A stretch of 32,000 nt of DNA from Alkalilimnicola ehrlichii MLHE-1 (GCF_000014785.1 NC_008340.1:2580001-2612000), one strand, 5' to 3'; counted from the stretch's first letter, positions 9,299 through 32,000 are shown. The notes: generated by a model from the letters alone, not told the origin. Made by a program: numbers and translations.

Positions 9299-9684
9299 CG
9301 GGGGGTGGGTGTGGCGGGTGCCCTCCCCCTGGTCACTGCGAGCCCCCGACCCATCACCCGTCACTGCGAGCCCCCGACCCATCACCCGTCACTGCGAGCC
9401 CCCGACCCATCACCCGTCACTGCGAGCCCCCGACCCATCACCCGTCACTGCGAGCCCCGGAGGGGCGCGGCAGTCCACGCCAGGGTATGGATCGCCGCGT
9501 CGCTTCGCTCCTCGCGATGACGGGGGGTGGCGCCCCCACCGTCACTGCGAGCGCGGCCCCGCCCCCACCGTCACTGCGAGCGCGGCCCCACCCCCACCGT
9601 CACTGCGAGGAGGCGAAGCCGACGTGGCAGTCTACCGCCCTGGATCGCCACGGGCCTGCAGCCCTCGCGATGACGGGGAGGGGG
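9299..9684 (+). repeat. Repeat array A of the GTCACTGCGAG...CTCGCGATGAC hairpin family
   Basis: It fills the whole convergent spacer between the regulator and ppiD. Heads fall at 9332/9360/9388/9416/9444 (28-bp period, identical filler CCCCCGACCCATCACCC). A full hairpin unit spans 9444-9523. Further heads fall at 9541/9570/9599 (29-bp period), and a second full unit ends about 9677. Confidence 0.95.
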
Positions 9685-9695
9685 CGTAGGCCGCG

Positions 9696-14557: not shown

Positions 14558-15012
14558 GGTGGATCGCCGCGTCGCTGCGCTCCTCGCGATGACGGGGAGA
14601 AACCCTCCGGCCCGCGCGATGACGGGGTGGTGGGCCCCCACCGTCACTGCGAGGAGTGGCCCCCAACCGTCACTGCGAGGAGTGGCCCCCAACCGTCACT
14701 GCGAGGAGCGAAGCGACGTGGCAGTCTACCCCTCTGGATCGCCACGGGCCGTCGGCCCTCGCGATGACGGGGGTGGTGCCCCCTGCCCCCGTCACTGCGA
14801 GCCCCGAAGGGGCGTGGCAGTCCATGCCGGGGTGTGGATCGCCGCGTCGCTTCGCTCCTCGCGATGACGGGGAGAAACCCTCCGGCCCGCGCGATGACGG
14901 GGTGATGGGCCCCCACCGTCACTGCGAGGAGGCGAAGCCGACGTGGCAGTCTACCCCTCTGGATCGCCACGGGCCTTCGGCCCTCGCGATGACGGGGGTG
15001 GTGCCCCGCGAT
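14558..15012 (+). repeat. Repeat array B of the hairpin family (clpX-lon spacer)
   Basis: Tail-only modules at 14558-14630. Heads at 14643/14669/14695 (26-bp period, filler GAGTGGCCCCCAACC). Full units run about 14695-14770, 14791-14870 and 14918-14995. Confidence 0.95.
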
Positions 15013-17164: not shown

Positions 17165-18517
17165 TTACTCCTTCGTCTCGTCTTGCTTGGACTCGCCCTC
17201 GGCCGACTCGGCCTCGGGCTGCTGCGGGCTCATCAGCTCCTGCAGTGACATGGGCTTGTCCTCGACCTGCGCCTGCTGGACCACGTAGTCGACCACCTGG
17301 TCCTCCAGCACGGCCACCTCCACGCCCTCCATCAGCTGACGATTCTGGGCGTAGTAGCGCAGCACCTCTTCGGGCTGCTCGTAGCCGGCCGCCATCTCCT
17401 GCAGCGACTGCATGACCCGATCGCGGTCGAGCTTGATGTCGTTGCTGCGCACCAACTCGTTGACAATCAGGCCCAGGGCCACCCGGCGGCGGGCGTTCTC
17501 CTCGAACAGGGCGGCCGGCAGGTCGTCGGGCTCCTCCTGGCCGGACTGCTGCTGGCGGGACTGCTCCTGCTGGCGCAGCTGGTCGATCTCGGCATCCACC
17601 AGCACCTTCGGCAGTTCGATATCGGTGATATCGAGAAGCTGGTCCATCACCTGATGCTTGACCCGGCTGGCAACGGTCTGGTCGCGCTCGCGCTCCAGAT
17701 TGGTCTTGATCGCCTCGCGCAGCTTCTCGACCCCGCCCTCCTTGACGCCCACCTTCTCGGCGAAGGCATCGTCGATCTCCGGGTACTCCGGGGCCTCCAC
17801 CGTCTTAACCGTGACCGCGAACTGCCCGGCCTTGCCGGCCACCTCGCTGTCGGGGAACTCCTCCGGGAAGGTGTGCTCGATGGTGGTCTCGTCGCCGGCC
17901 TTGACGCCGGTGAGCCCCTCCTCGAAGGCCGGCGGCATCTGCCCGGCACCCAGCACCACGGGCACGTCGTTGCCCTCGTTGCCGGAGAACTCCTCACCGT
18001 CCACGGTGCCCTTGAAGTCGATGACCACCCGGTCCCCCTCCTGGGAGGCGCGGTCCACCTCGTTGTACTCGGCCTGCTGCTTGCGCAGGCGCTCGAGCAC
18101 CTCATCCACGTCGGCGTCGGTGATCTCCACCTGCGGGCGCTCGACCTTGATCTGGTCCAGGCCGGTGACCTCGAAGCTGGGCAGCACCTCGAAGGTGGCC
18201 TGGTACTCCAGGTCCTTGCCCTCCTCGGTCTGCTTGGGCTCGATCTCGGGGTTACCGGCCGGGCGCAGCTCCTTCTCACGCAGCGCCTCACTGTAGGTGC
18301 TCTGGACCAGCTCGCTCAGCACCTCGCCGCGCACCTGGGGCCCGTAGCGCTTGCGCACCACCTTGAGCGGCACCTTGCCCGGGCGGAAGCCGTCCATGCG
18401 AACGTTGCCGCGAAGCGACCGCAGGCGCTGATCCACCTTCTCCTCGACCTGCTCTGCGGGCACCTGCACGGTCATGCGGCGACCCAGCCCCTCGGTCGTC
18501 TCCACTGAAACTTGCAT
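17165..18517 (-). CDS. tig: Trigger factor
   Basis: MQVSVETTEGLGRRMTVQVPAEQVEEKVDQRLRSLRGNVRMDGFRPGKVP is the canonical trigger-factor N-terminus. The track start at 18631 reads through the tRNA-Leu gene and is rejected. Confidence 0.95.
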   Translation of the reverse strand: MQVSVETTEGLGRRMTVQVPAEQVEEKVDQRLRSLRGNVRMDGFRPGKVPLKVVRKRYGPQVRGEVLSELVQSTYSEALREKELRPAGNPEIEPKQTEEGKDLEYQATFEVLPSFEVTGLDQIKVERPQVEITDADVDEVLERLRKQQAEYNEVDRASQEGDRVVIDFKGTVDGEEFSGNEGNDVPVVLGAGQMPPAFEEGLTGVKAGDETTIEHTFPEEFPDSEVAGKAGQFAVTVKTVEAPEYPEIDDAFAEKVGVKEGGVEKLREAIKTNLERERDQTVASRVKHQVMDQLLDITDIELPKVLVDAEIDQLRQQEQSRQQQSGQEEPDDLPAALFEENARRRVALGLIVNELVRSNDIKLDRDRVMQSLQEMAAGYEQPEEVLRYYAQNRQLMEGVEVAVLEDQVVDYVVQQAQVEDKPMSLQELMSPQQPEAESAEGESKQDETKE

Positions 18518-18587
18518 TGAAAACCCCTTAACCGTCCTGTTCGCGGCGCCGCCGGGCGGCCACCGCCGTGTCTTTGAACTTGATGTG

Positions 18588-18674
18588 TGGTGCGAAAGGG
18601 GAGACTCGAACTCCCACGGGGTCGCCCCCACCAGGACCTAAACCTGGCGCGTCTACCAATTCCGCCACTTTCGC
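18588..18674 (-). tRNA. tRNA-Leu (anticodon TAG)
   Basis: The reverse complement is GCGAAAGTGGCGGAATTGGTAGACGCGCCAGGTTTAGGTCCTGGTGGGGGCGACCCCGTGGGAGTTCGAGTCTCCCCTTTCGCACCA. It has a long variable arm, and the acceptor stem GCGAAAG/CTTTCGC pairs. Confidence 0.9.
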
Positions 18675-19545: not shown

Positions 19546-20240
19546 GGACTGCCGCGCCCCCTTCGGGGGCTCGCAGTGACAGTGGAGGCACCACCCCCCG
19601 GTTATCGCGAGGGCCGCCACCTCCTCCCCGTCATCGCCAGGGCCGCCACCTCCTCCCCGTCATCGCCAGGGCCGCCACCTCCTCTCCGTCATCGCGAGGG
19701 CCGAAGGCCCGTGGCGATCCAGAGGGGTAGACTGCCACGTCGGCTTCGCCTCCTCGCAGTGACAGTGGGGGTACACCACCGCCCGTCATCGCGAGGAGCG
19801 CCCCTCCCCCCGTCATCGCGAGGGCCGAAGGCCCGTGGCGATCCAGAGGGGTAGACTGCCACGTCGGCTTCGCCTCCTCGCAGTGACAGTGGGGGTACAC
19901 CACCGCCCGTCATCGCGAGGAGCGCCCCTCCCCCCGTCATCGCGAGGGCCGAAGGCCCGTGGCGATCCAGGGCGGTAGACTGCCACGTCGGCTTCGCCTC
20001 CTCGCAGTGACAGTGGGGGTACACCACCGCCCGTCATCGCGAGGAGCGCCCCTCCCCCCGTCATCGCGAGGGCCGAAGGCCCGTGGCGATCCAGGGCGGT
20101 AGACTGCGACGTCGGCTTCGCCTCCTCGCAGTGACGGTGGGGGTGGGTCCCCGCTCGCAGCGACGGCGGGGCTTCCCCCGTCATCGCGAGGGCCGCCCCT
20201 CCCCTCGTCATCGCGAGGAGCGAAGCGACGCGGCGATCCA
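19546..20240 (-). repeat. Repeat array C of the hairpin family (inverted orientation)
   Basis: Tail micro-tandem at 19601/19630/19659/19688 (29-bp period). Four composite units follow with a 124-bp period (GTCATCGCGAGGGCCGAAGG at 19688/19812/19936/20060). Degenerate modules end at about 20240, 25 bp from the GIY-YIG stop. Confidence 0.95.
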
Positions 20241-20264
20241 TACGCCGCCCAGGACCGCCACGCC

Positions 20265-20552
20265 TTAAATGATGTCGTGATACAAATCCCGCCACCCCGG
20301 ATTCATTGACTCTATCAACCCCACCTTCCGATTCCGGTTTCCCGACTTCAACTGCTTCTCCCGGCCGATGGCCGATGTCATGGTTTCATGGACTTCATAC
20401 CACACCAGCCGATGCAGGCCGTACCGTCGGGTAAACCCATCCACAAAGCCGGATTTATGCTGCCAGACACGTTGCACCAGGTTGCTGGTGACGCCGACAT
20501 AAAGCGTGCCGTTCCGGCCATTGGTCATGATATAGACACAGGGTTGGTTCAT
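20265..20552 (-). CDS. Stand-alone GIY-YIG nuclease (URI domain, COG2827/YhbQ-like)
   Basis: 95 aa: CVYIMTNGRNGTLYVGVTSNLVQRVWQHK...GFTRRYGLHRLVWYEVHETMTSAIGREKQLKSGNRNRKVGLIE (GIY...YVG, catalytic R and E). A strong AAGGAGG lies 7 nt upstream. GC is visibly lower (one 60-nt line spot-counted at 52%). Confidence 0.9.
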   Translation of the reverse strand: MNQPCVYIMTNGRNGTLYVGVTSNLVQRVWQHKSGFVDGFTRRYGLHRLVWYEVHETMTSAIGREKQLKSGNRNRKVGLIESMNPGWRDLYHDII

Positions 20553-20585
20553 ATGAGCCCTCCTTGGCCCTGAGTGATTCGCCGC

Positions 20586-21335
20586 CTATCCCCACTGCAC
20601 CACGCCCCGCACCAGCGTATACCCCCCGGCGACCAACGCCACTCCCAGCATCAGGTTCCGGTACGCGGCCAATGGAATCCAGTGGCCGAGGTACCGCGAC
20701 ACCCCCAGCCCCAGCACCACCCCCGGCAACAGGCTGGCGGCCAACGCCACATCCTGCCAGCCGAACCGCCCGGCCATGCCCAGCGCCGTGAGCGACATGA
20801 CGCTCATGGGCACGAAAATGGCATATAGCGTGCCGCGCACCCGCGCTGGAGAGGCGTTCTGATAGGCCAGCCCCAACGGCGGCCCACCCACTCCGGTAAT
20901 CGTGCCCATGGTCGCCGCGCACAGGCTGCCTGAGAACACCACGCTGCCGCGGGGCTGCACCTGGAGCCGGACCCAGCTCAGCACCACGGCCACCACAATC
21001 AGCGCCCCGAACAGGGTCTGCCACGCCGACAGCGGCAGCAGGCCGATCACCAGATAGGCCAACGCCGCCCCCAGCAGCGCCCCAGGCCAAGCCCAAGCCA
21101 GATCACGCACCACCACATGACGGGCATTGGCGCGCAGCAGCATCAGCGGCAGGATACCGCCGATCAGGACCAGCGGCGCCGGCACCAGGGTCGGGTGGAT
21201 CAGAAACAGCAAGGGCGCGCTGAACAGGGCCACGCCGTACCCGATCACGCCCTGGATCGCCGCACCGACGACGACGACACTCACCGCCAGCACCCACTGA
21301 AGCAGGCCCAGATCACCGAACACGATTGTCTCCAT
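20586..21335 (-). CDS. TauE/SafE (DUF81) family anion-exporter permease
   Basis: 249 aa with about 7-8 TM segments. The Gly-rich motifs GAAIQGVIGYGVALFSAPLL and TGVGGPPLGLAY are typical of the family. Confidence 0.85.
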   Translation of the reverse strand: METIVFGDLGLLQWVLAVSVVVVGAAIQGVIGYGVALFSAPLLFLIHPTLVPAPLVLIGGILPLMLLRANARHVVVRDLAWAWPGALLGAALAYLVIGLLPLSAWQTLFGALIVVAVVLSWVRLQVQPRGSVVFSGSLCAATMGTITGVGGPPLGLAYQNASPARVRGTLYAIFVPMSVMSLTALGMAGRFGWQDVALAASLLPGVVLGLGVSRYLGHWIPLAAYRNLMLGVALVAGGYTLVRGVVQWG

Positions 21336-21390
21336 TGCAAGCCATCATTCCCGCCGCAGCCAGTGTGCCAACCTACACCGCGGTTACCGG

Positions 21391-21673
21391 ACTGCACAGA
21401 GGGGCGTGGCAGTCCAGGCGGCGGGTGGATCGCCGCGTCGCTTCGCTCCTCGCGATGACGGGGGTGGGTGCCGCCCCCACCGTCACTGCGAGGAGGCGAA
21501 GCCGACGTGGCAGTCTACCGCTCTGGATCGCCACGGGCCTTCGGCCCTCGCGATGACGGGGGTGCCCCGTTCCTCGTTGATTCGGGCCCGCGCAGCGGGG
21601 AGGGGGGCTCGCGATGACGGGGTGGGTGCCGCCCCCACCGTCACTGCGAGCCCCGGAGGGGCGTGGCAGTCCA
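21391..21673 (+). repeat. Repeat array D of the hairpin family
   Basis: A degenerate head plus GGGGCGTGGCAGTCC...TGGATCGCCGCGTCGCTTCGCTCCTCGCGATGACGG, a full unit at 21481-21560, a tail-only module about 21608-21620, and a head plus half unit at 21639-21673. Confidence 0.9.
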
Positions 21674-21814
21674 GACCGAGGGCTATTGGCTGCGGCTACA
21701 AAACGCTTACGATCTGGAGGAGGCACGCCGCCACATGGCCGCATGAGCGGCAGCACCTGCTGCGCAGTTCACGGGCTTGTATTTAGCCCTGCTTCCGTTG
21801 CGCCTTGAAAGGCC

Positions 21815-23002
21815 TCAGATCTGCCGCAACGCACGCTCCAAATGCCCAAAGCCGATCCGCTCCTGTTCCAGCCTCAGGCAATCCTGCAGGGTATCTTCCC
21901 GCAGGTCCTGGAAAAGCGCCTGTTCCGCCTCGGTGAGTAGCGAAAGGCGCCCTGTGAACCGCTTGTTAGCCGGCTCCCGCCCCCACATCTCACGGTGCAT
22001 CTCCAACGTCTCGCGGTCCATGAGCAGGGATCGGGCGTGGGGCAGGCGGGTGCGCAGGCGGTGGAGCATGGCGAAGCCGTGGGTGTCGATATCGCCCCAG
22101 TAGTGGACCGCCACCTCCCGCAGCCAGCCAACCCCCGCCAACCGCTCCAGCCCATAGCCCAGACCGAAGATCACCAGGCCGCCCGGGTGGTCGGGGAAGG
22201 CCAGGCCATTGATCTCGTTCTCGGTGATGAAGACCCGGCGCACCGGCAGGCGCAGGTCGGCGAACTGTTCCGGGGGCACCGAGAGGTCGCTCAGCCCCTG
22301 CACGTAGAGGGCGGGGTCCAGCAACCGGAAGCGCACCAGCGCCGGCTTCTCCCGCAGCCCGAAACGCCGTTCGAAGCCCCGGGCGCCGGTGGCCGACGGG
22401 TCGATGGCGGCCTCGGGCAGCACCGCGTCCAACAACTCGGTGAACAGCCGGCGCCGGGCCTCGATGAACTTGGTGTCCACCCCGGGGATGTCCAGTTGCC
22501 GCAGATAGATACCGGGCCGGGGGTGGGCGCGGAACCAGTCCAGCACGTCCAGAATGCGCGGCCAGGCCCCGGCCTCCGCCAGCGCCTGCAGCGGCCGCCG
22601 GGCCAGCCAGTCTGCCAGCGACGGGAAGCGGCGCAGGGTCTCCCCGGCCAGCGCCCGAAAGCGGGCCGCCTCCCGCTCACGGCCGATCAGGCGCAAGCCG
22701 TCCGCCTCGCTCGGGACAATCGCCCCGGCGGGCAGGTCATTGGCCCCATGCACCCGGTGGTTCACCCGCCGCCACTCGATCCCGTAGCCGTACCCCCGCT
22801 CATCGCGGCTGCCGGCCTGAAGCTGCTGCACCCAACGGCGCACGGCGACGAAGTCCTCGGCCAGATCCCGGGAGGTGGGGCGGCGCAGCCGCAGCGTGAG
22901 CGGAAAGAGCGACTCGCCGCGCACATAGGCGGCCAGCCAATCGCCGCGCTCCCATTGGCGCAACAACTGCTGGCGCAGCTCGTCGGGTGTCGTCCAACTC
23001 AT
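21815..23002 (-). CDS. jetD: Wadjet JetD (DUF3322 plus Toprim/DUF2220 nuclease subunit)
   Basis: From the internal ATG at 23002 (ATGA overlap with the jetC stop): MSWTTPDELRQQLLRQWERGDWL... Toprim acidic motifs are VFITENEINGLAF and YWGDIDTHGFAMLHRLR. The track start at 23278 lies inside jetC and is rejected. Confidence 0.9.
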   Translation of the reverse strand: MSWTTPDELRQQLLRQWERGDWLAAYVRGESLFPLTLRLRRPTSRDLAEDFVAVRRWVQQLQAGSRDERGYGYGIEWRRVNHRVHGANDLPAGAIVPSEADGLRLIGREREAARFRALAGETLRRFPSLADWLARRPLQALAEAGAWPRILDVLDWFRAHPRPGIYLRQLDIPGVDTKFIEARRRLFTELLDAVLPEAAIDPSATGARGFERRFGLREKPALVRFRLLDPALYVQGLSDLSVPPEQFADLRLPVRRVFITENEINGLAFPDHPGGLVIFGLGYGLERLAGVGWLREVAVHYWGDIDTHGFAMLHRLRTRLPHARSLLMDRETLEMHREMWGREPANKRFTGRLSLLTEAEQALFQDLREDTLQDCLRLEQERIGFGHLERALRQI

Positions 23003-26000
23003 GGCGCGATACGCTGGCGGGCGGCCTTCTCCGCCTGGTACTCCGCAATGGTGAGATTGCGCACCATAGACTCGCGCCCCTCCACGTTGTGCACAAACCC
23101 CACGCTGGCCACGAAGGGCTCGATGATGTGGATCTTCTGCAACGGGGTGACGATCAGCAACTGCAGGTTCAACCGCTGGAACAGCTCCAGGCCGTAACGG
23201 GCGGACTCGTCCGAGCCGCGGCCGAAGGCCTCGTCGATGACCACGAAGCGGAACGAGCGCGAGCGGGTCTCGCCCCACTCCAGCCCGAACTGGTAGGCCA
23301 GGCTCGCGGCCAGCACGGTATAGGCCAGCTTCTCCTTCTGCCCCCCGGACTTGCCCCCGGAATCGGCGTAGTGCTCGTACTCGCTGTCGTCCTCGCGCCA
23401 GCGTTCGGAGGCGGAGAAGACGAACCAGTTGCGCACATCGGTGACCTTGCGGGTCCAGCGCCGGTCCAGGTCGGTGGTTCCCTCCCGGCCGCGGAAGCGC
23501 TCGATGATGGCCTTCACCTGCAGGAACTTGGCCTCGGAGTACTGATCGTCGTCCGAGCCGGTCACCGCCCCCTCGGTGCAGGCGCGCAGGCTCTGCTGAA
23601 AGTCGCGGATCTCCGCGTCCGGGGCGCTTTCCGCCATCAGGGTGATGTAACGGTTGTCGTTGTAGTCGATCTCACGCAGCGAGCGGTTGATGGTGCCGAT
23701 GCGCTCCAGGATCGCCTGGCGCTCCCGATGCAGCCGGCTCTGGAAGGCGGCCACCTCGCGGATGGTGTTTTCGTTGAGCAGCTCCTTGAAGCGGGCCTCG
23801 AAGCGGGGCAGATCATCTGCCTGCAACTGCTCGAGCATGGCGCGATAGTCGCCGGCGGCCTCGACGCTCACATCCACCTCCTGGCTGTCCAGCGGCCAGG
23901 CGTCCTGGTAGCGGCGCATGGCGTCGATGATGCGGTCGCGCAACTGCGCCAGGCGCTTGTCCTCCGCGTCGATCTTGCCCTGCAGCCATTCGCGCATGTC
24001 CTTCTCGCGGTTGTCGCAGGACTCCACCGTCAGGGTGTGCTCACCCAGGGCCTCGTCGCGCATGGCGGCCAGGCGCGGAAAGTAGGTCTGCTGCGCCTCT
24101 TCCGGTGTCGACTCCAACAGCGTGTGGCAATCCTGCCACTGGGCCCGGGCCTGCTCCTGTTTCAGCTCGTTGGCGCTGATCTCGCGATCCGCCTGGCGGA
24201 CCTCGCCCTCGACGCCCTTGATGGTCTTTTCCAGCTCATCCAGTTGCCGCTCCAGCGCCCGGAGCACGTCCGAGCCCTCGGCCAGCTCCCGGTACTCGCG
24301 CTCCAGCGCCTCAATGTCGGCAGCCAGCGGACGCCAGTCCAGGGCCTGAAAATCCTGGAACAGGGTCAGCTCCTGGATGGTGTCGCGGCGGGCCTCCTGG
24401 GCCCGCCGTTCGTCCTCCCAGCCACCGATGCGCTTGGCGATGGCCTGCATGCGCTCGGCCAGCCCGTCGGCCTCGGCCTCCAGCGCGGCGATCTTCGCCT
24501 CGTTGCTCCAGCCCAGCACATAACGGGTGCGGTCATCGATACGGTGGCGGTCGTCCTTCTCGTGGCGGCCACCGCCGGCCTTTATCTGCCCGGCACGGGT
24601 GATCGCCCGCTTCTCACGACGGAATTGCTGCAGATCGGTGCAGCAAGCGTAATCGAAGCGCTGCGCCAGCGCCTGCTCCAGCCAGGTATAAAACGCCGAC
24701 TCCGGCCGGATGGCCAGCTTGCGCACCAGCGAGTCGGCGTGCAGCGACGGCGGCGGCGCGTCGCGGGCTTCGCGCACGCGGTAGTAGACCAACCGCCCCC
24801 GCAACCGGGTGCGGTCCACCCACTCGGCGACGCGGGCGTAGTGGCTGTCGGGCACCAGCAGCGACAGGCCGAAGTTGTGCAGCACCCGTTCGATGGCGCC
24901 CTCCCAGTCGCGCTCGTCGTCACGCACCTGCAGCAGTTCACCGGCGAAGGGCAGGTCCTCGGCGGGCACCTCCAGCGCGCGGCACAGGGCGGTGCGGATG
25001 GCGAGGATCTCCGCCGGGATGTTGGAGCGTCGACCGCGCAGCGATGCCAGCTCGGCATCCAGGTCCTCGTGCCGCCCCTTGAGCTGGTGCAGCTCCACGC
25101 TGGCCTCCGTAATCCGGTTCTGCAGCTCGCTGCGGGCGGTCTCGGTGGCCTCGCGGGCCACGGTGAGCGCCTCGCGGTTGGCGTGAAAGACCTCGTCGCT
25201 GGTGGCATCGGGCAGCTCCAGCCGGTGCGCCAGCCGCCGGTAGCGCTCGGCCTTCTCGCTGCGCTCCGCCTTCTCCCGCCGCTTGCGCTCCAGCTCCGCC
25301 TTGATCCGCTCCAGGCGGTCGCCGCCGTTCTCGGCGATCGCCTGCTTGAGCTCGTCGCGCCGGGCCCGCTGCTCGGTGAGCCGAGTGCTCAGCCCCTCAA
25401 TGCGCTGCTGCAGCCGCTCGTGCTCCTGGCCCAGGTTGTCCAACCGGCGGTCCAGCAGCTCGGCCTTCAGCGAGGCGAACCAGGGCCGCAACGCCTGGCG
25501 GCAATCGCGCAGCTCCCGGGCCCGGGTGGCCCGTTGGTCGTGCTCGTCGGCATCGCGCACCAGGGGAATCAACTGCGCCACCTGCGACTTGGCCTTCAAC
25601 ACCGCCTCGTGGGCCCGGTTGAGGTCGTCGAAATGGCGGATCAGCGCCTCGATCCGCTCCTCGACGGGGAAGGCCTCCAGCATGTGACTGCGCACGAACT
25701 CGGTCAGGTTACCCACCGACTTCATGGAGACCGTCTGGTTAAAGAGCTCCAGGGCCTGCTCATTGTCGATGCCGAAGCGCCGCCGGAAGGCACCGCCGTA
25801 GGGCGGAAAGGTGTCGTACAACTCCACGTGGGGCAGCCCGCGCAGGCGCTTGCGCAGGTTGGCCAGGTCGGTGCCGAAATTGGCGAAGTGCTCGGCGATG
25901 TTCAGCGGGCGGTCGGCGACCACGAAAAACCGCGCCGGCTGGCCCTGGGTGTCCTTCATCCAGAAGACCTGGGCCAGGGTCACATCGTGGCCGAAGCCCT

Positions 26001-26391
26001 CGTTGTGGAAGTGGCCGAGGATGACCGAGTAGTTGTTATGGTCGCGCAGGCCCACCGGCTTGCTGGCCAAGCCGGCGTCGCTACGCTCCGACTTGTAGTA
26101 GCCGAGGACGTAAGAGCGCAGGCTGCGCTCCTTGGCCTCCGCGCCGGCGGCCTTGTTGTAGGTGATCCGCTGAGCCGGCACCAGCAGCGTGGTGATGGCG
26201 TCCACCAAGGTGGACTTGCCGGAGCCGATGTCCCCGGTCAGCAGGCTGTTGTCGCCGCCGGGCTGCAGCGACCAGACGCGGTCGTGGAAGGTGCCCCAGT
26301 TGAACACCTCCAGCCGCTGGAGGCGAAAACCGGTGCGCTGGTCGGAGCCGGCGAAATCCAGTCCCTGGGTTTCCATACGATGGGGTTCCAT
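22999..26391 (-). CDS. jetC: Wadjet JetC (SMC/MukB-like ATPase)
   Basis: 1130 aa from the ATG at 26391. It has FRLQRLEVFNWGTFHDRVW, Walker A LLTGDIGSGKSTLVDAI, a long central Glu/Arg/Leu-rich coiled-coil region, and Walker B FRFVVIDEAFGRGSD. Confidence 0.92.
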   Translation of the reverse strand: MEPHRMETQGLDFAGSDQRTGFRLQRLEVFNWGTFHDRVWSLQPGGDNSLLTGDIGSGKSTLVDAITTLLVPAQRITYNKAAGAEAKERSLRSYVLGYYKSERSDAGLASKPVGLRDHNNYSVILGHFHNEGFGHDVTLAQVFWMKDTQGQPARFFVVADRPLNIAEHFANFGTDLANLRKRLRGLPHVELYDTFPPYGGAFRRRFGIDNEQALELFNQTVSMKSVGNLTEFVRSHMLEAFPVEERIEALIRHFDDLNRAHEAVLKAKSQVAQLIPLVRDADEHDQRATRARELRDCRQALRPWFASLKAELLDRRLDNLGQEHERLQQRIEGLSTRLTEQRARRDELKQAIAENGGDRLERIKAELERKRREKAERSEKAERYRRLAHRLELPDATSDEVFHANREALTVAREATETARSELQNRITEASVELHQLKGRHEDLDAELASLRGRRSNIPAEILAIRTALCRALEVPAEDLPFAGELLQVRDDERDWEGAIERVLHNFGLSLLVPDSHYARVAEWVDRTRLRGRLVYYRVREARDAPPPSLHADSLVRKLAIRPESAFYTWLEQALAQRFDYACCTDLQQFRREKRAITRAGQIKAGGGRHEKDDRHRIDDRTRYVLGWSNEAKIAALEAEADGLAERMQAIAKRIGGWEDERRAQEARRDTIQELTLFQDFQALDWRPLAADIEALEREYRELAEGSDVLRALERQLDELEKTIKGVEGEVRQADREISANELKQEQARAQWQDCHTLLESTPEEAQQTYFPRLAAMRDEALGEHTLTVESCDNREKDMREWLQGKIDAEDKRLAQLRDRIIDAMRRYQDAWPLDSQEVDVSVEAAGDYRAMLEQLQADDLPRFEARFKELLNENTIREVAAFQSRLHRERQAILERIGTINRSLREIDYNDNRYITLMAESAPDAEIRDFQQSLRACTEGAVTGSDDDQYSEAKFLQVKAIIERFRGREGTTDLDRRWTRKVTDVRNWFVFSASERWREDDSEYEHYADSGGKSGGQKEKLAYTVLAASLAYQFGLEWGETRSRSFRFVVIDEAFGRGSDESARYGLELFQRLNLQLLIVTPLQKIHIIEPFVASVGFVHNVEGRESMVRNLTIAEYQAEKAARQRIAP

Positions 26392-26393
26392 GC

Positions 26394-26993
26394 TCACTGC
26401 CCGTCGCCGGCGGTAGTGGTGGCCTCGGCGTGCTCGCGGTACTCGGCCAGGCGCTGGTCGAACTCCGCCAGCCACTGGGCGTCGATATAGGCCTTGATGA
26501 TCCGGCGCACCTCGTACTGATTATCCTGCCCGCGCAGCCGGCGCAGGAAACCCAGCTCCACCACCTTGTTGATGTCCGCGTGCACCCGGTCCACCAACTT
26601 CGCCTCGTTGGCGCTGGCCGGCAGGAAGACACGGATCAGCTCCACGATCTGCTCCCGCGAGAGGATCAGCCGCGGGTCGCCGCCGCCGGCATCGTGCTCC
26701 ACCAGCTTCTTGCGCAGCAGCGCCAGCAGCAGGCTTACCGGGTAGGTGAGCTGGCGGCGCGGCACCAGCCGGGGCAGCTCCGGCTCGTCCTCGGCGGGGG
26801 TCCGCTGGCGCAGGCAGGCGTGGCCCTCGGCCTCGTCCAGCATCAGCTCCAGCCCGAGCACGGCCACGTGGTCGCGCACCCGCGCCTGGTGGTCCTCAAG
26901 CACCTGCCAGTAGCGAGGGTTCTGGTCCTTGTACAGCACACCCTTGAACAGGGTGATCAGCATGGCCGAGAAGTCGGCGTCCTGTTCGCTCAT
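26394..26993 (-). CDS. jetB: Wadjet JetB (DUF4194, kleisin-associated KITE-like subunit)
   Basis: 199 aa from the ATG at 26993: MSEQDADFSAMLITLFKGVLYKDQNPRYWQVLEDHQARVRDHVAVLGLELMLDEAEGHACLRQ. This pattern, the size, and the position between jetA and jetC are all as in JetB. Confidence 0.85.
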   Translation of the reverse strand: MSEQDADFSAMLITLFKGVLYKDQNPRYWQVLEDHQARVRDHVAVLGLELMLDEAEGHACLRQRTPAEDEPELPRLVPRRQLTYPVSLLLALLRKKLVEHDAGGGDPRLILSREQIVELIRVFLPASANEAKLVDRVHADINKVVELGFLRRLRGQDNQYEVRRIIKAYIDAQWLAEFDQRLAEYREHAEATTTAGDGQ

Positions 26994-26997
26994 AGGC

Positions 26998-28434
26998 TCA
27001 ACGGCAGAAGATAACCTGCGGTAGCGTGGCGCTGCGGGCAACGCCGTCACGGTCGCGCCAGTATACGGTCTGCTGGCGGGTTTCATCGATCACGCTGCGG
27101 TGATCCTCTGTGGCCAGGGCCAGGTAGACCACCAGTTCGGCCAGGCCCTGCTCCAGCGGGTGTTGCTCCAACAGGGCCGCCAGGCTGATCTGCTCGCGGG
27201 TCTGCAGCGCCCGGCGCACCTGCCCTTGCAGCCGGGTGCGGTCCACGTAGGCCTGGTCGAACAGCGCCGCCACGTCGCCCTCCGCCTCGCCCGCCTCCAG
27301 CACCTGCTGCTCGATGCGCGGCGTAACCGGCGGACTGAAGAGCGGGCGCTCCATGGGCAGCTCCACCCGGGGCGCGGGTTCGTCCAGGGCCATGGTGAAA
27401 TCCCGGGGCGGGGCTTCCCGCAGGTGCAGGGCCTGCTGCTCCAACTCGCGGATCAGCCCCATGATGCGGCGGTTCTCCAGCCAGGCCTGATCGTCCAGAT
27501 AGCGGCGCAACTGCTCGGAGAGCCGCGCCACCACCCGCTGGGTGTGCTCGCCCGCCGCCAGCCAGTCGTAATGGATGCGGGCCAGGGTCGGGTCGGGCGC
27601 CACCTCGGTCACGGGCTCGAGCGCCAGGGTGCGCTCGAGCAGTTCGGTCAACTCCTCCTGGCGAGCCGGGGACATGAGCAGATCCCAGAAGGCGCGGAAG
27701 CTGCGGCCCTGGTCGGAATCGGCGATGCGGTCGTGCTCGCCGAAGACCTGGTCGAGGATATCGCCCTTGCCGCCCTCCCAGGTGGCCACCTGCTCGCGCA
27801 CCTGGCGGTCCAGCGCGCGGAAGTTGGCCTCCACCTGGCGGAAGTCCCCCAGCAGCCCGCGGGCCGTGTCGGCCATCTGCAGAAAACGCTCGCGCAGGCG
27901 GGTGGGGTCCATCAGGTTCAGGTGCCCGGCCCGCACCTCGTCGATCTCGCGCTCGATGGCGTCGCGCCGCGCCTCCAGATCGCGCAGGCGGGCCTCCGGG
28001 TCGGTCTCCGCCCCCTCCACGATCTGTTTCAGCAGATCAAACACCAGGGTGAGCCGCGACTCCGCACCGATAAAGTGGGCCTGCTCCAGGCCCGCCAGCC
28101 ACTGGATCGCCTGCTCGGTGGCCGGGGTGAGGTCGTAGTGGGGTTCGTCGCTGTGCTGCGGGTAGTACTTGCGCAACCAACCGCGCTCATCGGCAGCCCA
28201 ATATGCCAGGTACTCGTGAGCGCCCTGCTGGTAGGCCTCGTCACCCAACCGGGCGCGCAGGTGGTAGAGGTAGTCCTCCAGCGCATTCTCCAGCTCCGAG
28301 GCCGGCAGCGCCCGCACGTTGGGCACCACGAAACAGCGGTGCAGAAAGGCCACGACCATCGGCGCGTTACCGGCCTGCAACAGGCGCCACCCCGGATGGG
28401 TGCGCCGCAGGCTGTATAGGTGATCGTGATCCAT
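26998..28434 (-). CDS. jetA: Wadjet JetA (DUF3375, kleisin-like subunit)
   Basis: 478 aa: MDHDHLYSLRRTHPGWRLLQAGNAPMVVAFLHRCF...LEDYLYHLR...YLAYWAADERGWLRKYY. It is the first gene of the four-gene operon. Confidence 0.88.
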   Translation of the reverse strand: MDHDHLYSLRRTHPGWRLLQAGNAPMVVAFLHRCFVVPNVRALPASELENALEDYLYHLRARLGDEAYQQGAHEYLAYWAADERGWLRKYYPQHSDEPHYDLTPATEQAIQWLAGLEQAHFIGAESRLTLVFDLLKQIVEGAETDPEARLRDLEARRDAIEREIDEVRAGHLNLMDPTRLRERFLQMADTARGLLGDFRQVEANFRALDRQVREQVATWEGGKGDILDQVFGEHDRIADSDQGRSFRAFWDLLMSPARQEELTELLERTLALEPVTEVAPDPTLARIHYDWLAAGEHTQRVVARLSEQLRRYLDDQAWLENRRIMGLIRELEQQALHLREAPPRDFTMALDEPAPRVELPMERPLFSPPVTPRIEQQVLEAGEAEGDVAALFDQAYVDRTRLQGQVRRALQTREQISLAALLEQHPLEQGLAELVVYLALATEDHRSVIDETRQQTVYWRDRDGVARSATLPQVIFCR

Positions 28435-28461
28435 GGGGCTCGGGGTCGGGAATGTCGGGGG

Positions 28462-28470
28462 ATTGTAGCA
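28462..28470 (-). promoter_or_regulatory. Possible extended -10 promoter (TGcTACAAT) for jetA
   Basis: The minus strand reads TTGCTACAAT about 27-36 nt upstream of the jetA ATG. No good -35 element is present. Only about 65 bp separate jetA from repeat array E. Confidence 0.25.
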
Positions 28471-28499
28471 AGGTGGCCGGGCCTCGGCCTATGACGGCG

Positions 28500-29265
28500 T
28501 GTGGATCGCCGCGTCGCTGCGCTCCTCGCGATGACGGAGGGGTGGGTGCCCCCCACCGTCACTGCGAGCGCGGATCCGCCCCCACCGTCACTGCGAGGAG
28601 CGAAGCGACGTGGCAGTCTACCCCTCTGGATCGCCACGGGCCTCCGACCCTCGCGATGACGGGGGGTGTTACCCCACCGTCACTGCGAGGAGGCGAAGCC
28701 GACGTGGCAGTCTACCCCTCTGGATCGCCACGGGCCTCCGGCCCTCGCGATGACGGGGGGTGTTGCCCCCACCGTCACTGCGAGGAGGCGAAGCCGACGT
28801 GGCAGTCTACCCCTCTGGATCGCCGCGGGCCTCCGGCCCTCGCGATGACCGGGGGGTGTTGCCCCCACCGTCACTGCGAGGAGGCGAAGCCGACGTGGCA
28901 GTCTACCCCTCTGGATCGCCACGGGCCTCCGGCCCTCGCGATGACGGGGGGTGTTGCCCCCACCGTCACTGCGAGGAGGCGAAGCCGACGTGGCAGTCTA
29001 CCCCTCTGGATCGCCGCGGGCCTTCGGCCCTCGCGATGACGGGGGGTGTTGCCCCCACCGTCACTGCGAGGAGGCGAAGCCGACGTGGCAGTCTACCCCT
29101 CTGGATCGCCGCGGGCCTTCGGCCCTCGCGATGACGGGGGGTGTTGCCCCCACCGTCACTGCGAGGAGGCGAAGCCGACGTGGCAGTCTACCGCCCTGGA
29201 TCGCCGCGGGCCTCCGGCCCTCGCGATGACCGGGGGGAAAGCCTCCGGCCCTCGCGATGACGGGG
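28500..29265 (+). repeat. Repeat array E of the hairpin family (type array, 95-bp units)
   Basis: Heads GTCACTGCGAG at 28558, 28587, 28679, 28774, 28870, 28965, 29060 and 29155. Seven near-identical full units have periods of 92-96 bp. Two tail-only modules close the array at about 29265. Confidence 0.97.
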
Positions 29266-29390
29266 ATAACCCGTCAACCTGAGGGGCGGCCGTTGGACAA
29301 CGTAATTAGAGACTCATACCATATTGAGCATCCCTCCCGGCAACCTTTTGACAGCCACCGGGAATCCCGAGCCCCCAGAAGCCACCTTTC

Positions 29391-30575
29391 ATGTTAAGCG
29401 ACCAAGACCTGCTTGAACGCCTACGGAACGGGGAGTCCCGTCGGGTGGAGTTCAAACCCTCCACGGCGCAAAATACCGCGATCCGGAGGGCCATCTGTGC
29501 ATTCGCCAACGATCTTGATGGGCAGGGCGAGATCGGCGTGATCTTCGTGGGGCTCAACGATGACGGGACCTGCAAAGGGATCGAACATCCAGACCGCGAC
29601 CAGAAGAAGCTATCCGACTGGGCCTTGGGGGGCGACATCCTCCCCCTTCCTGACGTGGAAATCGGTTATCGCGAGCTGGACGGTTGCCCTGTCATAGTCG
29701 CCGAGATACGCCCCCACCAAGAACCCCCGGTACGCTACCAGGGCCAGGCGTGGGTCAGGGTTGGCACCACCAACCGCCGCGCTACTCCGGAACAGGAGAG
29801 ACGTTTGGCGGAGCGACGGCGGGGCGGAGACCTTCCCTTCGACCATCGGCCGGCCCCCGGCGCCAGTCTTGATGACCTCGATCTGAGGTACTTCGAGCGC
29901 GAGTACCTGCCCAATGCCGTCGCACCGGAGGTCCTGGAAGAGAACAACCGTAGCATCGAAGATCAACTCAACGCCCTCAGGTTTCTCACCCAGGGCCAAG
30001 TCAACCACGGTGCTCTGCTCGTCCTGGGGCACGACCCGACCGCCTATATACCGGGGGCCTACGTGCAGTTCCTACGCATCGACGGAACCGAGCTGGGCGA
30101 CCCCATCAAGGACGAAAAGAGACTGACCGGCAACCTGCCCGAGGTCATGGCGCAGCTGGACGAGTTGTTGGAGGTGCACATCCAGGTTGCTGTCGACATC
30201 GAGGCCGGATCACGGGAGCAGCGCCAGCCCGACTACCCCGTTGTTGCCTTGCAGCAACTCACCCGGAACGCCCTCATCCATCGCGCCTACGAAGGCAGCC
30301 ACGCGCCGGTCCGCGTCTATTGGTTCAGAGACCGGGTGGAAATTCAGAACCCCGGCGGACTCTACGGCCAAGTCACCACCGACAACTTCGGTCAGGGTGT
30401 CACCGATTACCGCAACCCCCTGATAGCAGAAGCCATGCATATTCTCGGCTACGTACAGAGATTCGGGTTCGGCATCCCATTGGCACAGCGCCACCTGCGG
30501 GAAAACGGCAACCCCGACCCCGATTTTCAGTTCGCGCCAGAGTTCCTGGCCGTCACCGTGAGGGCAGTGACGTGA
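29391..30575 (+). CDS. Schlafen/AlbA_2-domain protein with a C-terminal HATPase_c_4-like domain (COG2865-like), no terminal wHTH
   Basis: The N-terminal motif set is LLERLRNGESRRVEFKPS...AICAFANDLDGQGEIGVIFVGLNDDGTCKGI. The C-terminal segment is QLTRNALIHRAYEGSHAPVRVYWFRDRVEIQNPGGLYG...YRNPLIAEAMHILGYVQRFGFGIPL. Domain names come from motif memory, not from a search. Confidence 0.85.
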   Translation: MLSDQDLLERLRNGESRRVEFKPSTAQNTAIRRAICAFANDLDGQGEIGVIFVGLNDDGTCKGIEHPDRDQKKLSDWALGGDILPLPDVEIGYRELDGCPVIVAEIRPHQEPPVRYQGQAWVRVGTTNRRATPEQERRLAERRRGGDLPFDHRPAPGASLDDLDLRYFEREYLPNAVAPEVLEENNRSIEDQLNALRFLTQGQVNHGALLVLGHDPTAYIPGAYVQFLRIDGTELGDPIKDEKRLTGNLPEVMAQLDELLEVHIQVAVDIEAGSREQRQPDYPVVALQQLTRNALIHRAYEGSHAPVRVYWFRDRVEIQNPGGLYGQVTTDNFGQGVTDYRNPLIAEAMHILGYVQRFGFGIPLAQRHLRENGNPDPDFQFAPEFLAVTVRAVT

Positions 30576-31543
30576 TAACCATTGCCTTCTTCAACAACAA
30601 GGGTGGCGTCGGCAAGACTGCTTTGGTCTACCATTTGGCCTGGATGTTCGCCGATCAGGGCCGGTCCGTGCTCGCCGCGGACCTGGACCCCCAAGCCAAC
30701 CTCTCCACCATGTTCCTGGACGAACAAAGCCTGGAAGGCTTCTGGCCGGAGGGGGACAGCACGCATACCGTACTCTCACCCATACGCCCACTGCTGGAAG
30801 GCGAAGGCGGCATCGAAAGCCCTCATGTTGAGCCCATCGAGGACCTAGGCCTGCTGGTCGGAGACCTGGCCCTGTCCGGCTTCGAGGACGAACTCTCCCA
30901 GCAATGGCCCCGCTGCCTGGACGGCGAGAAGCGGGCCTTTCGCATCATCGGCGCCTTTGCCGAAGTCATCCAACGTGCCGGCGCCAACCGGGAAGCCGAC
31001 CTGGCGCTGGTGGATGTCGGCCCCAACCTGGGAGCCATCAATCGTGCCGCACTCATTGCCGCAGATTATGTGGTCGTGCCCCTGGGGCCGGACCTCTTTT
31101 CCCTGAAGGGACTGCAAAACCTGGGCCCCACCCTCCGACGGTGGCGTACGGACTGGCGCAAGCGGCTGCAGGAATTACCCACCAATGTACAAGCCCCATC
31201 GGGGCAAATGACGCCGATCGGTTACGTGGTCATGCAGCATTCCGTCCGACTTGACCGGCCGGTCAAGGCGTATGGCAAATGGATGGACCGGATCCCCAGC
31301 ACTTACCACCGTTACGTCCTCGACAAACCGGACGCTGCCAACCTGCGTGTCGACGACGACAGCGAATGTCTGGCTGCATTGAAGGACTATCGGAGCCTGA
31401 TGCCCATGGCTCAGGAAGCCCGCAAGCCCATGTTTCACCTCAAACCGGCGGACGGCGCCATCGGCTCCCACGTCCGTGCGGTACAAAACTGCTACAAAGA
31501 TTTCCGGGACCTGGCAGCGGCTATCGACAGCCGCACGCAGTGA
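30572..31543 (+). CDS. Orphan ParA/MinD-superfamily ATPase with a C-terminal extension
   Basis: GTG at 30572 overlaps the upstream TGA (GTGA). Motifs are VITIAFFNNKGGVGKTALV (deviant Walker A), LAADLDPQANLS and DLALVDVGPNLG. The next in-frame ATG would remove the Walker A, and the track ATG at 30320 would overlap the upstream gene by about 250 nt. Confidence 0.85.
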   Translation: MITIAFFNNKGGVGKTALVYHLAWMFADQGRSVLAADLDPQANLSTMFLDEQSLEGFWPEGDSTHTVLSPIRPLLEGEGGIESPHVEPIEDLGLLVGDLALSGFEDELSQQWPRCLDGEKRAFRIIGAFAEVIQRAGANREADLALVDVGPNLGAINRAALIAADYVVVPLGPDLFSLKGLQNLGPTLRRWRTDWRKRLQELPTNVQAPSGQMTPIGYVVMQHSVRLDRPVKAYGKWMDRIPSTYHRYVLDKPDAANLRVDDDSECLAALKDYRSLMPMAQEARKPMFHLKPADGAIGSHVRAVQNCYKDFRDLAAAIDSRTQ

Positions 31544-32000
31544 CGGTGGGGGCACCCCCCGTCATCGTGATGAGTGCAGGCCCTCCCCCCGGCATCGCGA
31601 GGGCCGAAGGCCCGTGGCGATCCAAGGCGGTAGACTGCCACGTCGGCTTCGCCTCCTCGCAGTGACGGTGTGGGCAACACCCCCCGTCATCGCGAGGGCC
31701 GAAGGCCCGTGGCGATCCAAGGCGGTAGACTGCCGCGTCGGCTTCGCCTCCTCGCAGTGACGGTGTGGGCAACACCCCCCGTCATCGCGAGGGCCGAAGG
31801 CCCGTGGCGATCCAAGGCGGTAGACTGCCACGTCGGCTTCGCCTCCTCGCAGTGACGGTGGGGTAACACCCCCGTCATCGCGAGGGCCGAAGGCCCGCGG
31901 CGATCCAGGGCGGTAGACTGCCACGTCGGCTTCGCCTCCTCGCAGTGACGGTGGGGGCAACACCCCCCGTCATCGCGAGGGCCGAAGGCCCGCGGCGATC
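31543..32000 (-). repeat. Repeat array F of the hairpin family (inverted orientation, runs off the window end)
   Basis: Tails G(T/G)CATCGCGAGGGCCGAAGG fall at 31591, 31686, 31781, 31874 and 31969 (period 93-95 bp). The reverse complement of a unit is near-identical to array E units, including the linker GGGGGGTGTTGCCC. Confidence 0.95.

Follow-up and report, generated by a model that had tools for sequence, protein, structure and literature searches.

Six tandem-repeat arrays, A to F, lie in a 32,000-nt stretch of the Alkalilimnicola ehrlichii MLHE-1 genome (NC_008340.1:2580001-2612000; hereafter the window). By analogy with a system described in Neisseria, we consider it likely that they are clusters of oriented, CGTC-tagged hairpins of the repetitive extragenic palindrome (REP) superfamily, a class now termed Ssn-related motifs (SRM), and that the adjacent GIY-YIG gene encodes their cognate Ssn-type nuclease. 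The feature is not a new island-building device. An earlier reading made by a model from the sequence alone (the sequence-only reading) had suggested that the arrays may be the scaffolds or insertion hot spots that assembled a genomic island here; that role survives as a possible long-term side effect of the arrays, not as what they are.

The arrays share an 11-mer head, GTCAYYGCSAG, of which the two strands of the window hold 65 copies where 0.36 are expected and where dinucleotide-preserving shuffles gave a maximum of 3 (100 shuffles); the sequence-only reading had counted more than 30. Every copy lies in one of six clusters (A, 9332-9674; B, 14583-14993; C, 19570-20217; D, 21449-21650; E, 28525-29261; and F, from 31543 to the window end), and the summed length of the six arrays, 3,016 bp or 9.4% of the window, bears out the earlier estimate of about 3 kb and a tenth of the sequence. 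None of the 65 heads falls inside a gene for which a Pfam domain or a gene call on related contigs gives support, and the repeats occupy both core gaps and island gaps. Tandem Repeats Finder (TRF) resolved array E into a 95-bp unit repeated 7.0 times (97% matches), array F into a 95-bp unit repeated 4.4 times and array C into a 124-bp unit repeated 3.9 times (96-97% matches); 26-29-bp units are also present in arrays A, B and C. The 95-bp and 124-bp units recur whole at 96-98% identity, without unique spacers.

Each array has a definable orientation because two head variants occupy opposite strands: GTCACTGCGAG is on the plus strand and GTCATCGCGAG on the minus strand in arrays A, B, D and E, and the reverse holds in C and F, giving plus orientation to the first four and minus to the other two. 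The longest exact matches agree, reaching 110 bp between E and F and 42 bp between C and D when inverted, and 49 bp between D and E when direct, against only 9-18 bp for the same pairs in the opposite orientation. The earlier assignment of C(-), D(+), E(+) and F(-) is thus correct, as is the claim that E and F are one 95-bp subfamily in inverted orientation, with common arms of 279 nt at 94% identity.

The basic element of the arrays is a 33-37-nt imperfect hairpin, not the 95-mer. It comprises a 5' CGTC tag, a 5-bp outer stem (A-YY-GC), a conserved GAG/GYG internal loop, a variable G+C inner stem of 3-5 bp and a GNA triloop, and closes with T-C and a CCA or CTA tail. Type 1 reads CC-GTC-ACTGC-GAG-GAGGCGAAGCCGAC-GTG-GCAGT-C-TAC and type 2 reads CC-GTC-ATCGC-GAG-GGCCGAAGGCC-CGTG-GCGAT-C-CAG, with 3' ends ...GCAGTCTA and ...GCGATCCA, respectively. 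The ACTGC-stem and ATCGC-stem variants alternate on opposite strands to form the composite units: a 95-bp unit is one type-1 and one type-2 hairpin placed tail to tail, neighboring units are joined head to head via a C/G-rich linker, and the 124-bp unit of array C has one extra head. At the edges of arrays A, B and C (9332-9458, 14633-14708 and 19589-19703) we also observed head-only tandem units of 26-29 bp, each a CGTC head, 5' half-stem and C-rich spacer with no 3' arm, in runs of 3-5 repeats; they also occur in a relative with 79%-identical DUF218 (L128, 3' end), described below. Such tandem half-hairpins are an arrangement not described for NTS hairpins or for REPs and their bacterial interspersed mosaic elements (BIMEs), and may be the trace of cutting and rejoining close to the loop.

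Folding energies of single DNA hairpins were no better than those of shuffles (z from -0.9 to +0.3), an uninformative result because the sequence is G+C-rich, and the case for structure therefore rests on covariation among relatives. Scanning one genome per species for the ends of the type-1 hairpin gave at least 120 stretches in many phyla, where we estimate about 18 chance matches. Among the matches listed, the hairpin ends are kept while the interior is replaced by other self-complementary inserts: 233 distinct hairpins from many phyla have 194 different, mostly self-complementary interiors, an inner stem of at least 4 bp occurs in 42% compared to 9.5% in shuffles, and loops are mostly GAA, GCA, GTA or GGA. 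CCA is the commonest tail in the same set (108 of 233), and GTCA is preceded by C in 139 of the 233 and by T in 65. Among these matches and in the 80 GIY-YIG loci described below, the ends GTCA-YY-GC-GAG ... G-Y-G-GC-RR-T-C are near-constant and the inner stem variable, in Campylobacterota, Chloroflexota, Bacteroidota, Spirochaetota and Acidobacteriota. The loop in relatives is almost always GNA with a C-G closing pair, which we take to correspond to the d(GCGAAGC) mini-hairpin, known for its high stability.

Hairpins with an adjacent GIY-YIG gene have a characterized counterpart. In Neisseria, the dRS3 repeat is part of a longer oriented hairpin, NTS (CGTCATTCCCGCGMAVGCGGGAATCYRG), and SsnA, a 94-aa single-domain GIY-YIG protein (cd10448; catalytic Y6, Y17 and E64) whose gene lies between NTS copies, binds NTS only as single-stranded DNA and not as RNA. 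Its cut falls a few nucleotides upstream, and it makes transformation by NTS-flanked DNA less efficient; of the Ssn homologs, 71% have related motifs (SRM) at their flanks (Chenal et al., 2025, Nat Commun; PMC11893778). The GIY-YIG protein of the window has 95 aa (homologs, 95-97 aa) and GIY-YIG as its sole Pfam domain (residues 4-74), and its Y7, Y18 and E65 are spaced as Y6, Y17 and E64 of N. meningitidis SsnA. E65 is invariant in an alignment of four homologs and the two tyrosine columns are not, the N-terminus of one sequence (L019) being cut off and another (L046) having phenylalanine at one of the columns. Because the same spacing also occurs in the UPF0213 family, it is supportive, not decisive.

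The physical association of gene and hairpin extends well beyond A. ehrlichii. Among the 120 hairpin-bearing stretches listed from other phyla, three have a GIY-YIG homolog within 250 bp of a hairpin, and one of these has hairpins on both sides of it. The four-homolog alignment retrieved 80 metagenomic GIY-YIG loci at 54-82% identity. A strict hairpin pattern, with a G-N-G-G-C 3' arm, placed a hairpin within 300 bp in 37 of the 80, an undercount because other loci carry a GAAGC 3' arm in place of GTGGC; we therefore based the association counts on a relaxed pattern that admits GAAGC, which gave 276 matches in the 80 loci compared to 1 in shuffled sequence. By this measure a hairpin lies within 250 bp of the gene in 76 of 80 loci, and on both sides in 47 of 75. 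Hairpins occupy 89 of 112 gaps beside the gene versus 9 of 86 other gaps of those contigs (odds ratio 33, p = 1e-23), and they thin out with distance, from a density of 5.0 per kb within 250 bp of the gene to about 0.2 per kb beyond 500 bp. Many of the homologs are on very short contigs, as expected of repeat-flanked genes. The sequence-only reading had treated the GIY-YIG gene as cargo, enclosed together with TauE between arrays C and D; it is very probably the repeat-associated partner, a single-strand nuclease.

Several observations weigh against this assignment. NCBIfam has no match for the GIY-YIG protein, and its only sequence match in the Protein Data Bank is a weak one to the UPF0213 protein BH0048 (1ZG2, E = 0.002). 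The published SRM search pattern, HGTCWYN(0-2)YYVSBRHN(0-5)WNVSBRGN(0-2)RNCYNB (PMC11893778), has 0 matches in the window, while the NTS control does match, and it finds a motif near the gene in only 1 of the 80 homolog loci. In the window, the GIY-YIG gene has repeats on its 3' side only. Finally, hairpins occupy 13 of 17 gaps in the island and 4 of 14 in the neighboring core (p = 0.012, a rough count), an enrichment not explained by simple filling of intergenic gaps. We accordingly file the system as a variant of the Ssn/SRM kind, not a proven member, by a likeness of protein size, residues, repeat ends and architecture.

If the analogy holds, the nuclease would, like the Neisseria enzyme, recognize its hairpin in single-stranded DNA alone and cleave a few nucleotides upstream of it; it would seed, spread and maintain the repeats, in a manner comparable to that enzyme and to REPs with their REP-associated tyrosine transposases (RAYTs). 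Arrays would grow and shrink by slippage or unequal exchange, and would build up in the intergenic gaps that short operons leave. They may incidentally provide portable homology and single-strand break sites, permitting occasional exchange of whole modules over long timescales.

Table 1. Repeat arrays of the window and the genes between arrays C and F, with head counts in the window and in a second A. ehrlichii genome.
Feature	Position	Strand or orientation	Heads, window	Heads, CP184336.1	Remarks
Array A	9320..9690	+	10	7	includes five head-only 28-bp units; between GntR (+) and PpiD-like gene (-)
Array B	14571..15005	+	9	7	between clpX (-) and lon (-), core protease cluster
Array C	19546..20240	-	16	11	124-bp composite unit x3.9
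ssn-like GIY-YIG gene	20265..20552	-			95 aa, MLHE-1 protein ABI57633; candidate partner nuclease of hairpins
TauE/SafE permease	20586..21335	-			conserved DUF218 neighbor, core
Array D	21391..21673	+	5	5	between jetD and tauE
Wadjet operon jetD-jetC-jetB-jetA	21815..28434	-			between direct arrays D and E
Array E	28500..29265	+	17	11	95-bp unit x7; divergent region jetA / Schlafen-like gene
Schlafen/AlbA_2-HATPase_c_4	29391-30575	+			first gene of two-gene cassette 29391..31543
ParA-like ATPase	30572-31543	+			second gene of cassette 29391..31543
Array F	31543..32000	-	at least 8	3	runs past window end; 95-bp subfamily of E, inverted

A second complete A. ehrlichii genome (CP184336.1, stretch L132) is collinear with the window from GntR to the ParA-like gene, identical in gene content and orientation, with 99.7-99.9% identity between arrays and 98% across array C to array E; every alignment break falls inside an array. 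Head counts differ in this otherwise collinear DNA (Table 1), and the arrays are therefore variable-number loci. Past ParA, the island goes on in CP184336.1 (L132 11226-20555) with HipBA, DUF6364-PIN and an MqsA-like pair, each followed by an array, and then with IS21 istAB and a group II intron reverse transcriptase; these three further arrays (L132 12807-13267, 14062-14514 and 16133-16361) carry the module-then-array pattern beyond the window. The ParA-like open reading frame (ORF) has 344 aa in CP184336.1 (L132 10001-11035) and 323 aa in the window: a stop-codon base change from GCAGTGAC to GCAGTTAC extends the frame into array F, so that array sequence is translated as a C-terminal extension. 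In short-read assemblies (four sequencing runs with these genes) contigs end in arrays, and short-read assemblies of A. ehrlichii, which break at every array, reach contig numbers above 700; because contigs end inside arrays, the orientation of the cassette between E and F is unreadable from them.

The comparison of the two complete genomes bears on the proposal that the arrays serve above all to build the island, as recombination scaffolds or hot spots for insertion, with inverted arrays driving inversion and direct arrays deletion or capture. The exact stretches shared between array pairs, of 42-110 bp, exceed what RecA-dependent exchange needs, and the 110-bp inverted match between E and F makes the proposed inversion of the enclosed Schlafen/ParA cassette physically plausible. 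Yet in the two complete A. ehrlichii genomes we see no inverted cassette at 29266-31542, no D/E deletion junction, and no change of gene content or orientation at any array; they differ at arrays in copy number alone. Arrays E and F also keep slight array-specific signatures, their 95-bp units being 96.7% identical within E and 95.8% within F but 94.6% between E and F, and the window has no integrase or transposase domain among its Pfam-scanned ORFs.

The distribution of the arrays is likewise broader than island boundaries. The sequence-only reading placed arrays at every accessory-module boundary, and hairpins do mark nearly all island junctions in the window, in CP184336.1 and in a soda-lake metagenome contig (L222); the phrase is nonetheless too narrow, as A and B lie between core genes, within the highly conserved tig-clpP-clpX-lon-ppiD cluster, and TauE is core. 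In the 79%-identity relative, DUF218 and TauE (83% aa identity) are convergent and 62 bp apart, with neither GIY-YIG gene nor array between them. The pair being kept there, TauE is ancestral and the insert in the window is GIY-YIG plus array C. This relative has arrays upstream of tauE, in opposite orientation, and between clpX and clpP, a gap that has none in the window. With A and B in the core cluster, and arrays at other core gaps in this relative, the arrays are not specific to island boundaries. Still more distant DUF218 neighborhoods are variable polysaccharide loci.

Over longer timescales, gene order does change at hairpin-bounded slots. In L222 the jetABCD coding block, exactly four genes, is 88% identical to that of the window and flanked by hairpins at both ends, and its neighbors differ on both sides: upstream are an MNT-like pair, a DUF6364-PIN module that matches the one in CP184336.1 at 83% nucleotide identity, and the GIY-YIG gene (82% aa identity); downstream a HepT-MNT pair takes the place of TauE. 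The same modules therefore fill different hairpin-bounded slots in related genomes, and the earlier expectation that gene content changes at arrays finds its support here, over long timescales, and none in CP184336.1. L222 (1-20288) also carries an OLD-family (AAA_15-TOPRIM) nuclease and MNT/HEPN-type pairs around Wadjet. The first hairpin past jetD is of the same unusual subtype in the window (21674-21814) and in L222 (18953-19040), with inner stem CCCCG/GGGGC, and may have traveled with the Wadjet operon; the jetD stop codon is separated from this hairpin by about 110 bp more of unique sequence in the window than in L222.

The two genes of the Schlafen/ParA cassette between E and F are conserved as a unit in Arhodomonas and other genera, and no such hairpins occur at the pair in the other genera examined; the repeats are therefore a property of the host lineage, not of the cargo. 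Identity of the ParA-like protein is 80-85% in Arhodomonas, Thiohalospira and Nitrococcus, and still 65-70% in genomes out to Planctomycetes. In L213-L216 a MarR gene precedes the pair and polysaccharide-synthesis genes follow it, while in the window the pair is isolated.

Taken as the primary explanation, then, island building has on its side the hairpins at nearly all module junctions of three genomes, the reordering of Wadjet, PIN toxin-antitoxin and GIY-YIG modules in L222 with Wadjet homology stopping at operon edges beside hairpins, the enrichment in island gaps, the exact shared stretches, and the link of dRS3/NTS repeats in Neisseria with variable genes and recombination (PMC11893778). 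Against it stand the conspecific genomes that differ only in copy number, the arrays between core housekeeping genes, a cargo cassette that elsewhere lacks the repeats, the array-specific signatures and the window's lack of integrase or transposase domains. We regard it as rather unlikely, although a scaffold role could be a real secondary role beside nuclease-partnered hairpins.

A further alternative is that the arrays act mainly as RNA, as 3'-untranslated stem-loops stabilizing or terminating the upstream transcript, as has been proposed for E. coli REPs; array positions would then simply mark operon ends. The hairpins would fold as RNA too. Array orientation opposes the gene strand in all six co-directional gaps of A. 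ehrlichii (B, D, F and the arrays after HipBA, DUF6364-PIN and the MqsA-like pair), so oriented that the type-2 head reads in mRNA sense, and arrays A and C, in convergent gaps, are compatible with such a polarity. We did not rely on this rule: it is broken in the 79%-identity relative, both in the clpX-clpP gap and upstream of tauE, and six of six gives only p ~0.03. Nor does a role in RNA fit array E, which occupies a divergent promoter region and has no gene upstream of it, or the 7-17 hairpins per array, which far exceed what a terminator needs; no T-runs or terminator-like sites coincide with arrays in the window, and the characterized Ssn enzyme does not bind RNA (PMC11893778). Rfam returned three tRNAs only in the window and no RNA family for the repeats at the gathering threshold, a permissive E-value on array E giving chance microRNA-like matches only. 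A mainly RNA-level function is in our view improbable.

We also considered whether the arrays are a classical REP/BIME system mobilized by a RAYT, or else belong to an unrelated type of array, CRISPR and integron attC among them. The alternating tandem hairpins do resemble BIMEs, and the periodicity of cassette plus repeat is superficially integron-like. However, the tag is CGTC and not GTAG; no Y1 (RAYT) transposase, cas gene or integrase domain occurs among the window's Pfam-scanned ORFs; the units have no unique spacers and no attC-type R/L box; and the gene beside the repeats is a GIY-YIG nuclease in the great majority of loci surveyed above. We rejected a CRISPR reading on the lack of unique spacers and, among those ORFs, of cas domains, and an integron reading on the missing R/L-box structure and the absence of an integrase from the window and from L132, and hold any explanation of this group to be extremely unlikely.

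Both hairpin orientations are present in every array. More speculatively, and with little expectation that it is right, nuclease and arrays may together form a cassette-boundary system for defense islands, in which cuts either fence modules against being replaced by incoming single-stranded DNA or trigger array-to-array shuffling of operons. If so, it would be an integrase-free analog of the integron, making single-strand cuts on whichever strand is exposed, and it would explain why arrays are denser at defense and toxin-antitoxin junctions than in core gaps and why Wadjet, the PIN toxin-antitoxin module and the nuclease gene are found in different hairpin-bounded slots.

By Pfam, the window begins with a FabI-like gene, lactate permease, LutC/LutB and GntR, followed by array A, a PpiD-like gene, tRNA-Asp, tRNA-Val, Lon and array B; then come ClpX, ClpP, Tig and tRNA-Leu, all four on the minus strand, and DUF218, array C, GIY-YIG, TauE and array D; and it ends with JetD-C-B-A, array E, Schlafen/AlbA_2-HATPase_c_4, the ParA-like gene and array F. 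The gene content earlier assigned to the inter-array segments (GIY-YIG and TauE; JetD/C/B/A; Schlafen and ParA-like) is therefore as described. The start of array C is 34 bp past the stop codon of DUF218, and its end is 25 bp away from that of GIY-YIG. The Schlafen/ParA cassette has a GC content of 62%, compared to about 68% nearby, with a 4-bp overlap between its two genes, which travel together. The longest trigger factor ORF (17165-18631, 488 aa, GTG start) overlaps tRNA-Leu (18588-18674); because gene calls on related contigs give 450 aa, its true start lies about 38 codons downstream.

These findings place a conspicuous tenth of the window in a system whose enzyme was characterized only in 2025. 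They would extend the Ssn-type system to a free-living soda-lake gammaproteobacterium, to a composite hairpin that the published pattern misses yet that flanks nearly all the related nuclease genes retrieved from diverse metagenomes, and to arrays that separate anti-plasmid (Wadjet) and toxin-antitoxin modules. If Ssn/SRM surveys relied on the published pattern, such systems have probably been undercounted. The arrays also explain the fragmented short-read assemblies of A. ehrlichii, and are ready-made variable-number markers for strain typing.

Literature searches by repeat sequence returned unrelated primer matches only, and those on Alkalilimnicola repeats, on COG2827/YhbQ and on GIY-YIG with REP found nothing relevant. 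E. coli REP/BIME repeats share with the arrays their alternating hairpins in tandem mosaics at operon ends, a single-copy repeat-flanked nuclease gene (in BIME/RAYT systems) and strain-variable copy number; they differ in having a GTAG tag and an HUH/Y1 transposase where the arrays have CGTC and GIY-YIG, and there is no sequence relationship. Integron attC arrays are likewise built of small same-strand modules, some of them toxin-antitoxin, each followed by a species-specific imperfect palindrome, but here 3-17 hairpins rather than one attC follow each module, and the repeats also lie between core genes. The Neisseria intergenic mosaic elements (NIMEs) with dRS3 are, like the arrays, large intergenic CGTC-hairpin arrays beside variable, non-essential genes, long proposed as recombination substrates. 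NIMEs interleave dRS3 with unrelated 50-150-bp RS units and are phage integration targets, whereas the arrays consist only of two hairpin variants and short linkers.

Di Nocera et al. (2013; PMC3733652) defined GTAG- and CGTC-tagged super-families of REPs, the latter with a CGTC (or TGTC/CCTC) head, a stem starting with A/T, a CCA tail and an apparent lack of a dedicated transposase. CGTC elements cluster in Neisseria (dRS3) and Wolbachia, grouped elements being called rare elsewhere; the four CGTC families have simple 8-9-bp stems and 4-5-nt loops, gammaproteobacterial examples are few, and the main text does not name Alkalilimnicola (PMC3733652). The arrays share the unpaired CGTC at the 5' end of the palindrome (both variants read CCGTCA...), a stem beginning with an A...T pair, a short unpaired 3' tail of CCA type, head-to-head and tail-to-tail neighbors, and an intergenic location without a tyrosine transposase; their stem, however, is composite and not of the simple 8-9-bp, 4-5-nt-loop form.

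The Ssn systems combine features of both gene and repeat. As in Ssn/NTS, the gene beside the oriented hairpins encodes a GIY-YIG protein of a single domain and about 94 aa, and the repeat ends are identical to those of NTS (CGTCAT...ATCYRG here, CGTCAT...GCGATCCAG there). As in SRM, an oriented hairpin of 20-50 nt (33-37 nt here) has a conserved 5' CGTCA and a conserved C right after the palindrome (3' ...T-C in both variants and in relatives), and the repeats lie between genes, group around particular ones, and occur in many phyla. The A. ehrlichii hairpin is longer than NTS and composite, with outer stem, GAG/GYG loop, variable inner stem and GNA triloop, and unlike NTS/SRM it has two alternating variants, which make up long tandem arrays with units of 95 bp and 124 bp. 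The setting differs from that of Ssn/SRM as well: the host is a free-living haloalkaliphile rather than a symbiont or pathogen, and its arrays flank defense and toxin-antitoxin modules rather than surface-protein genes.

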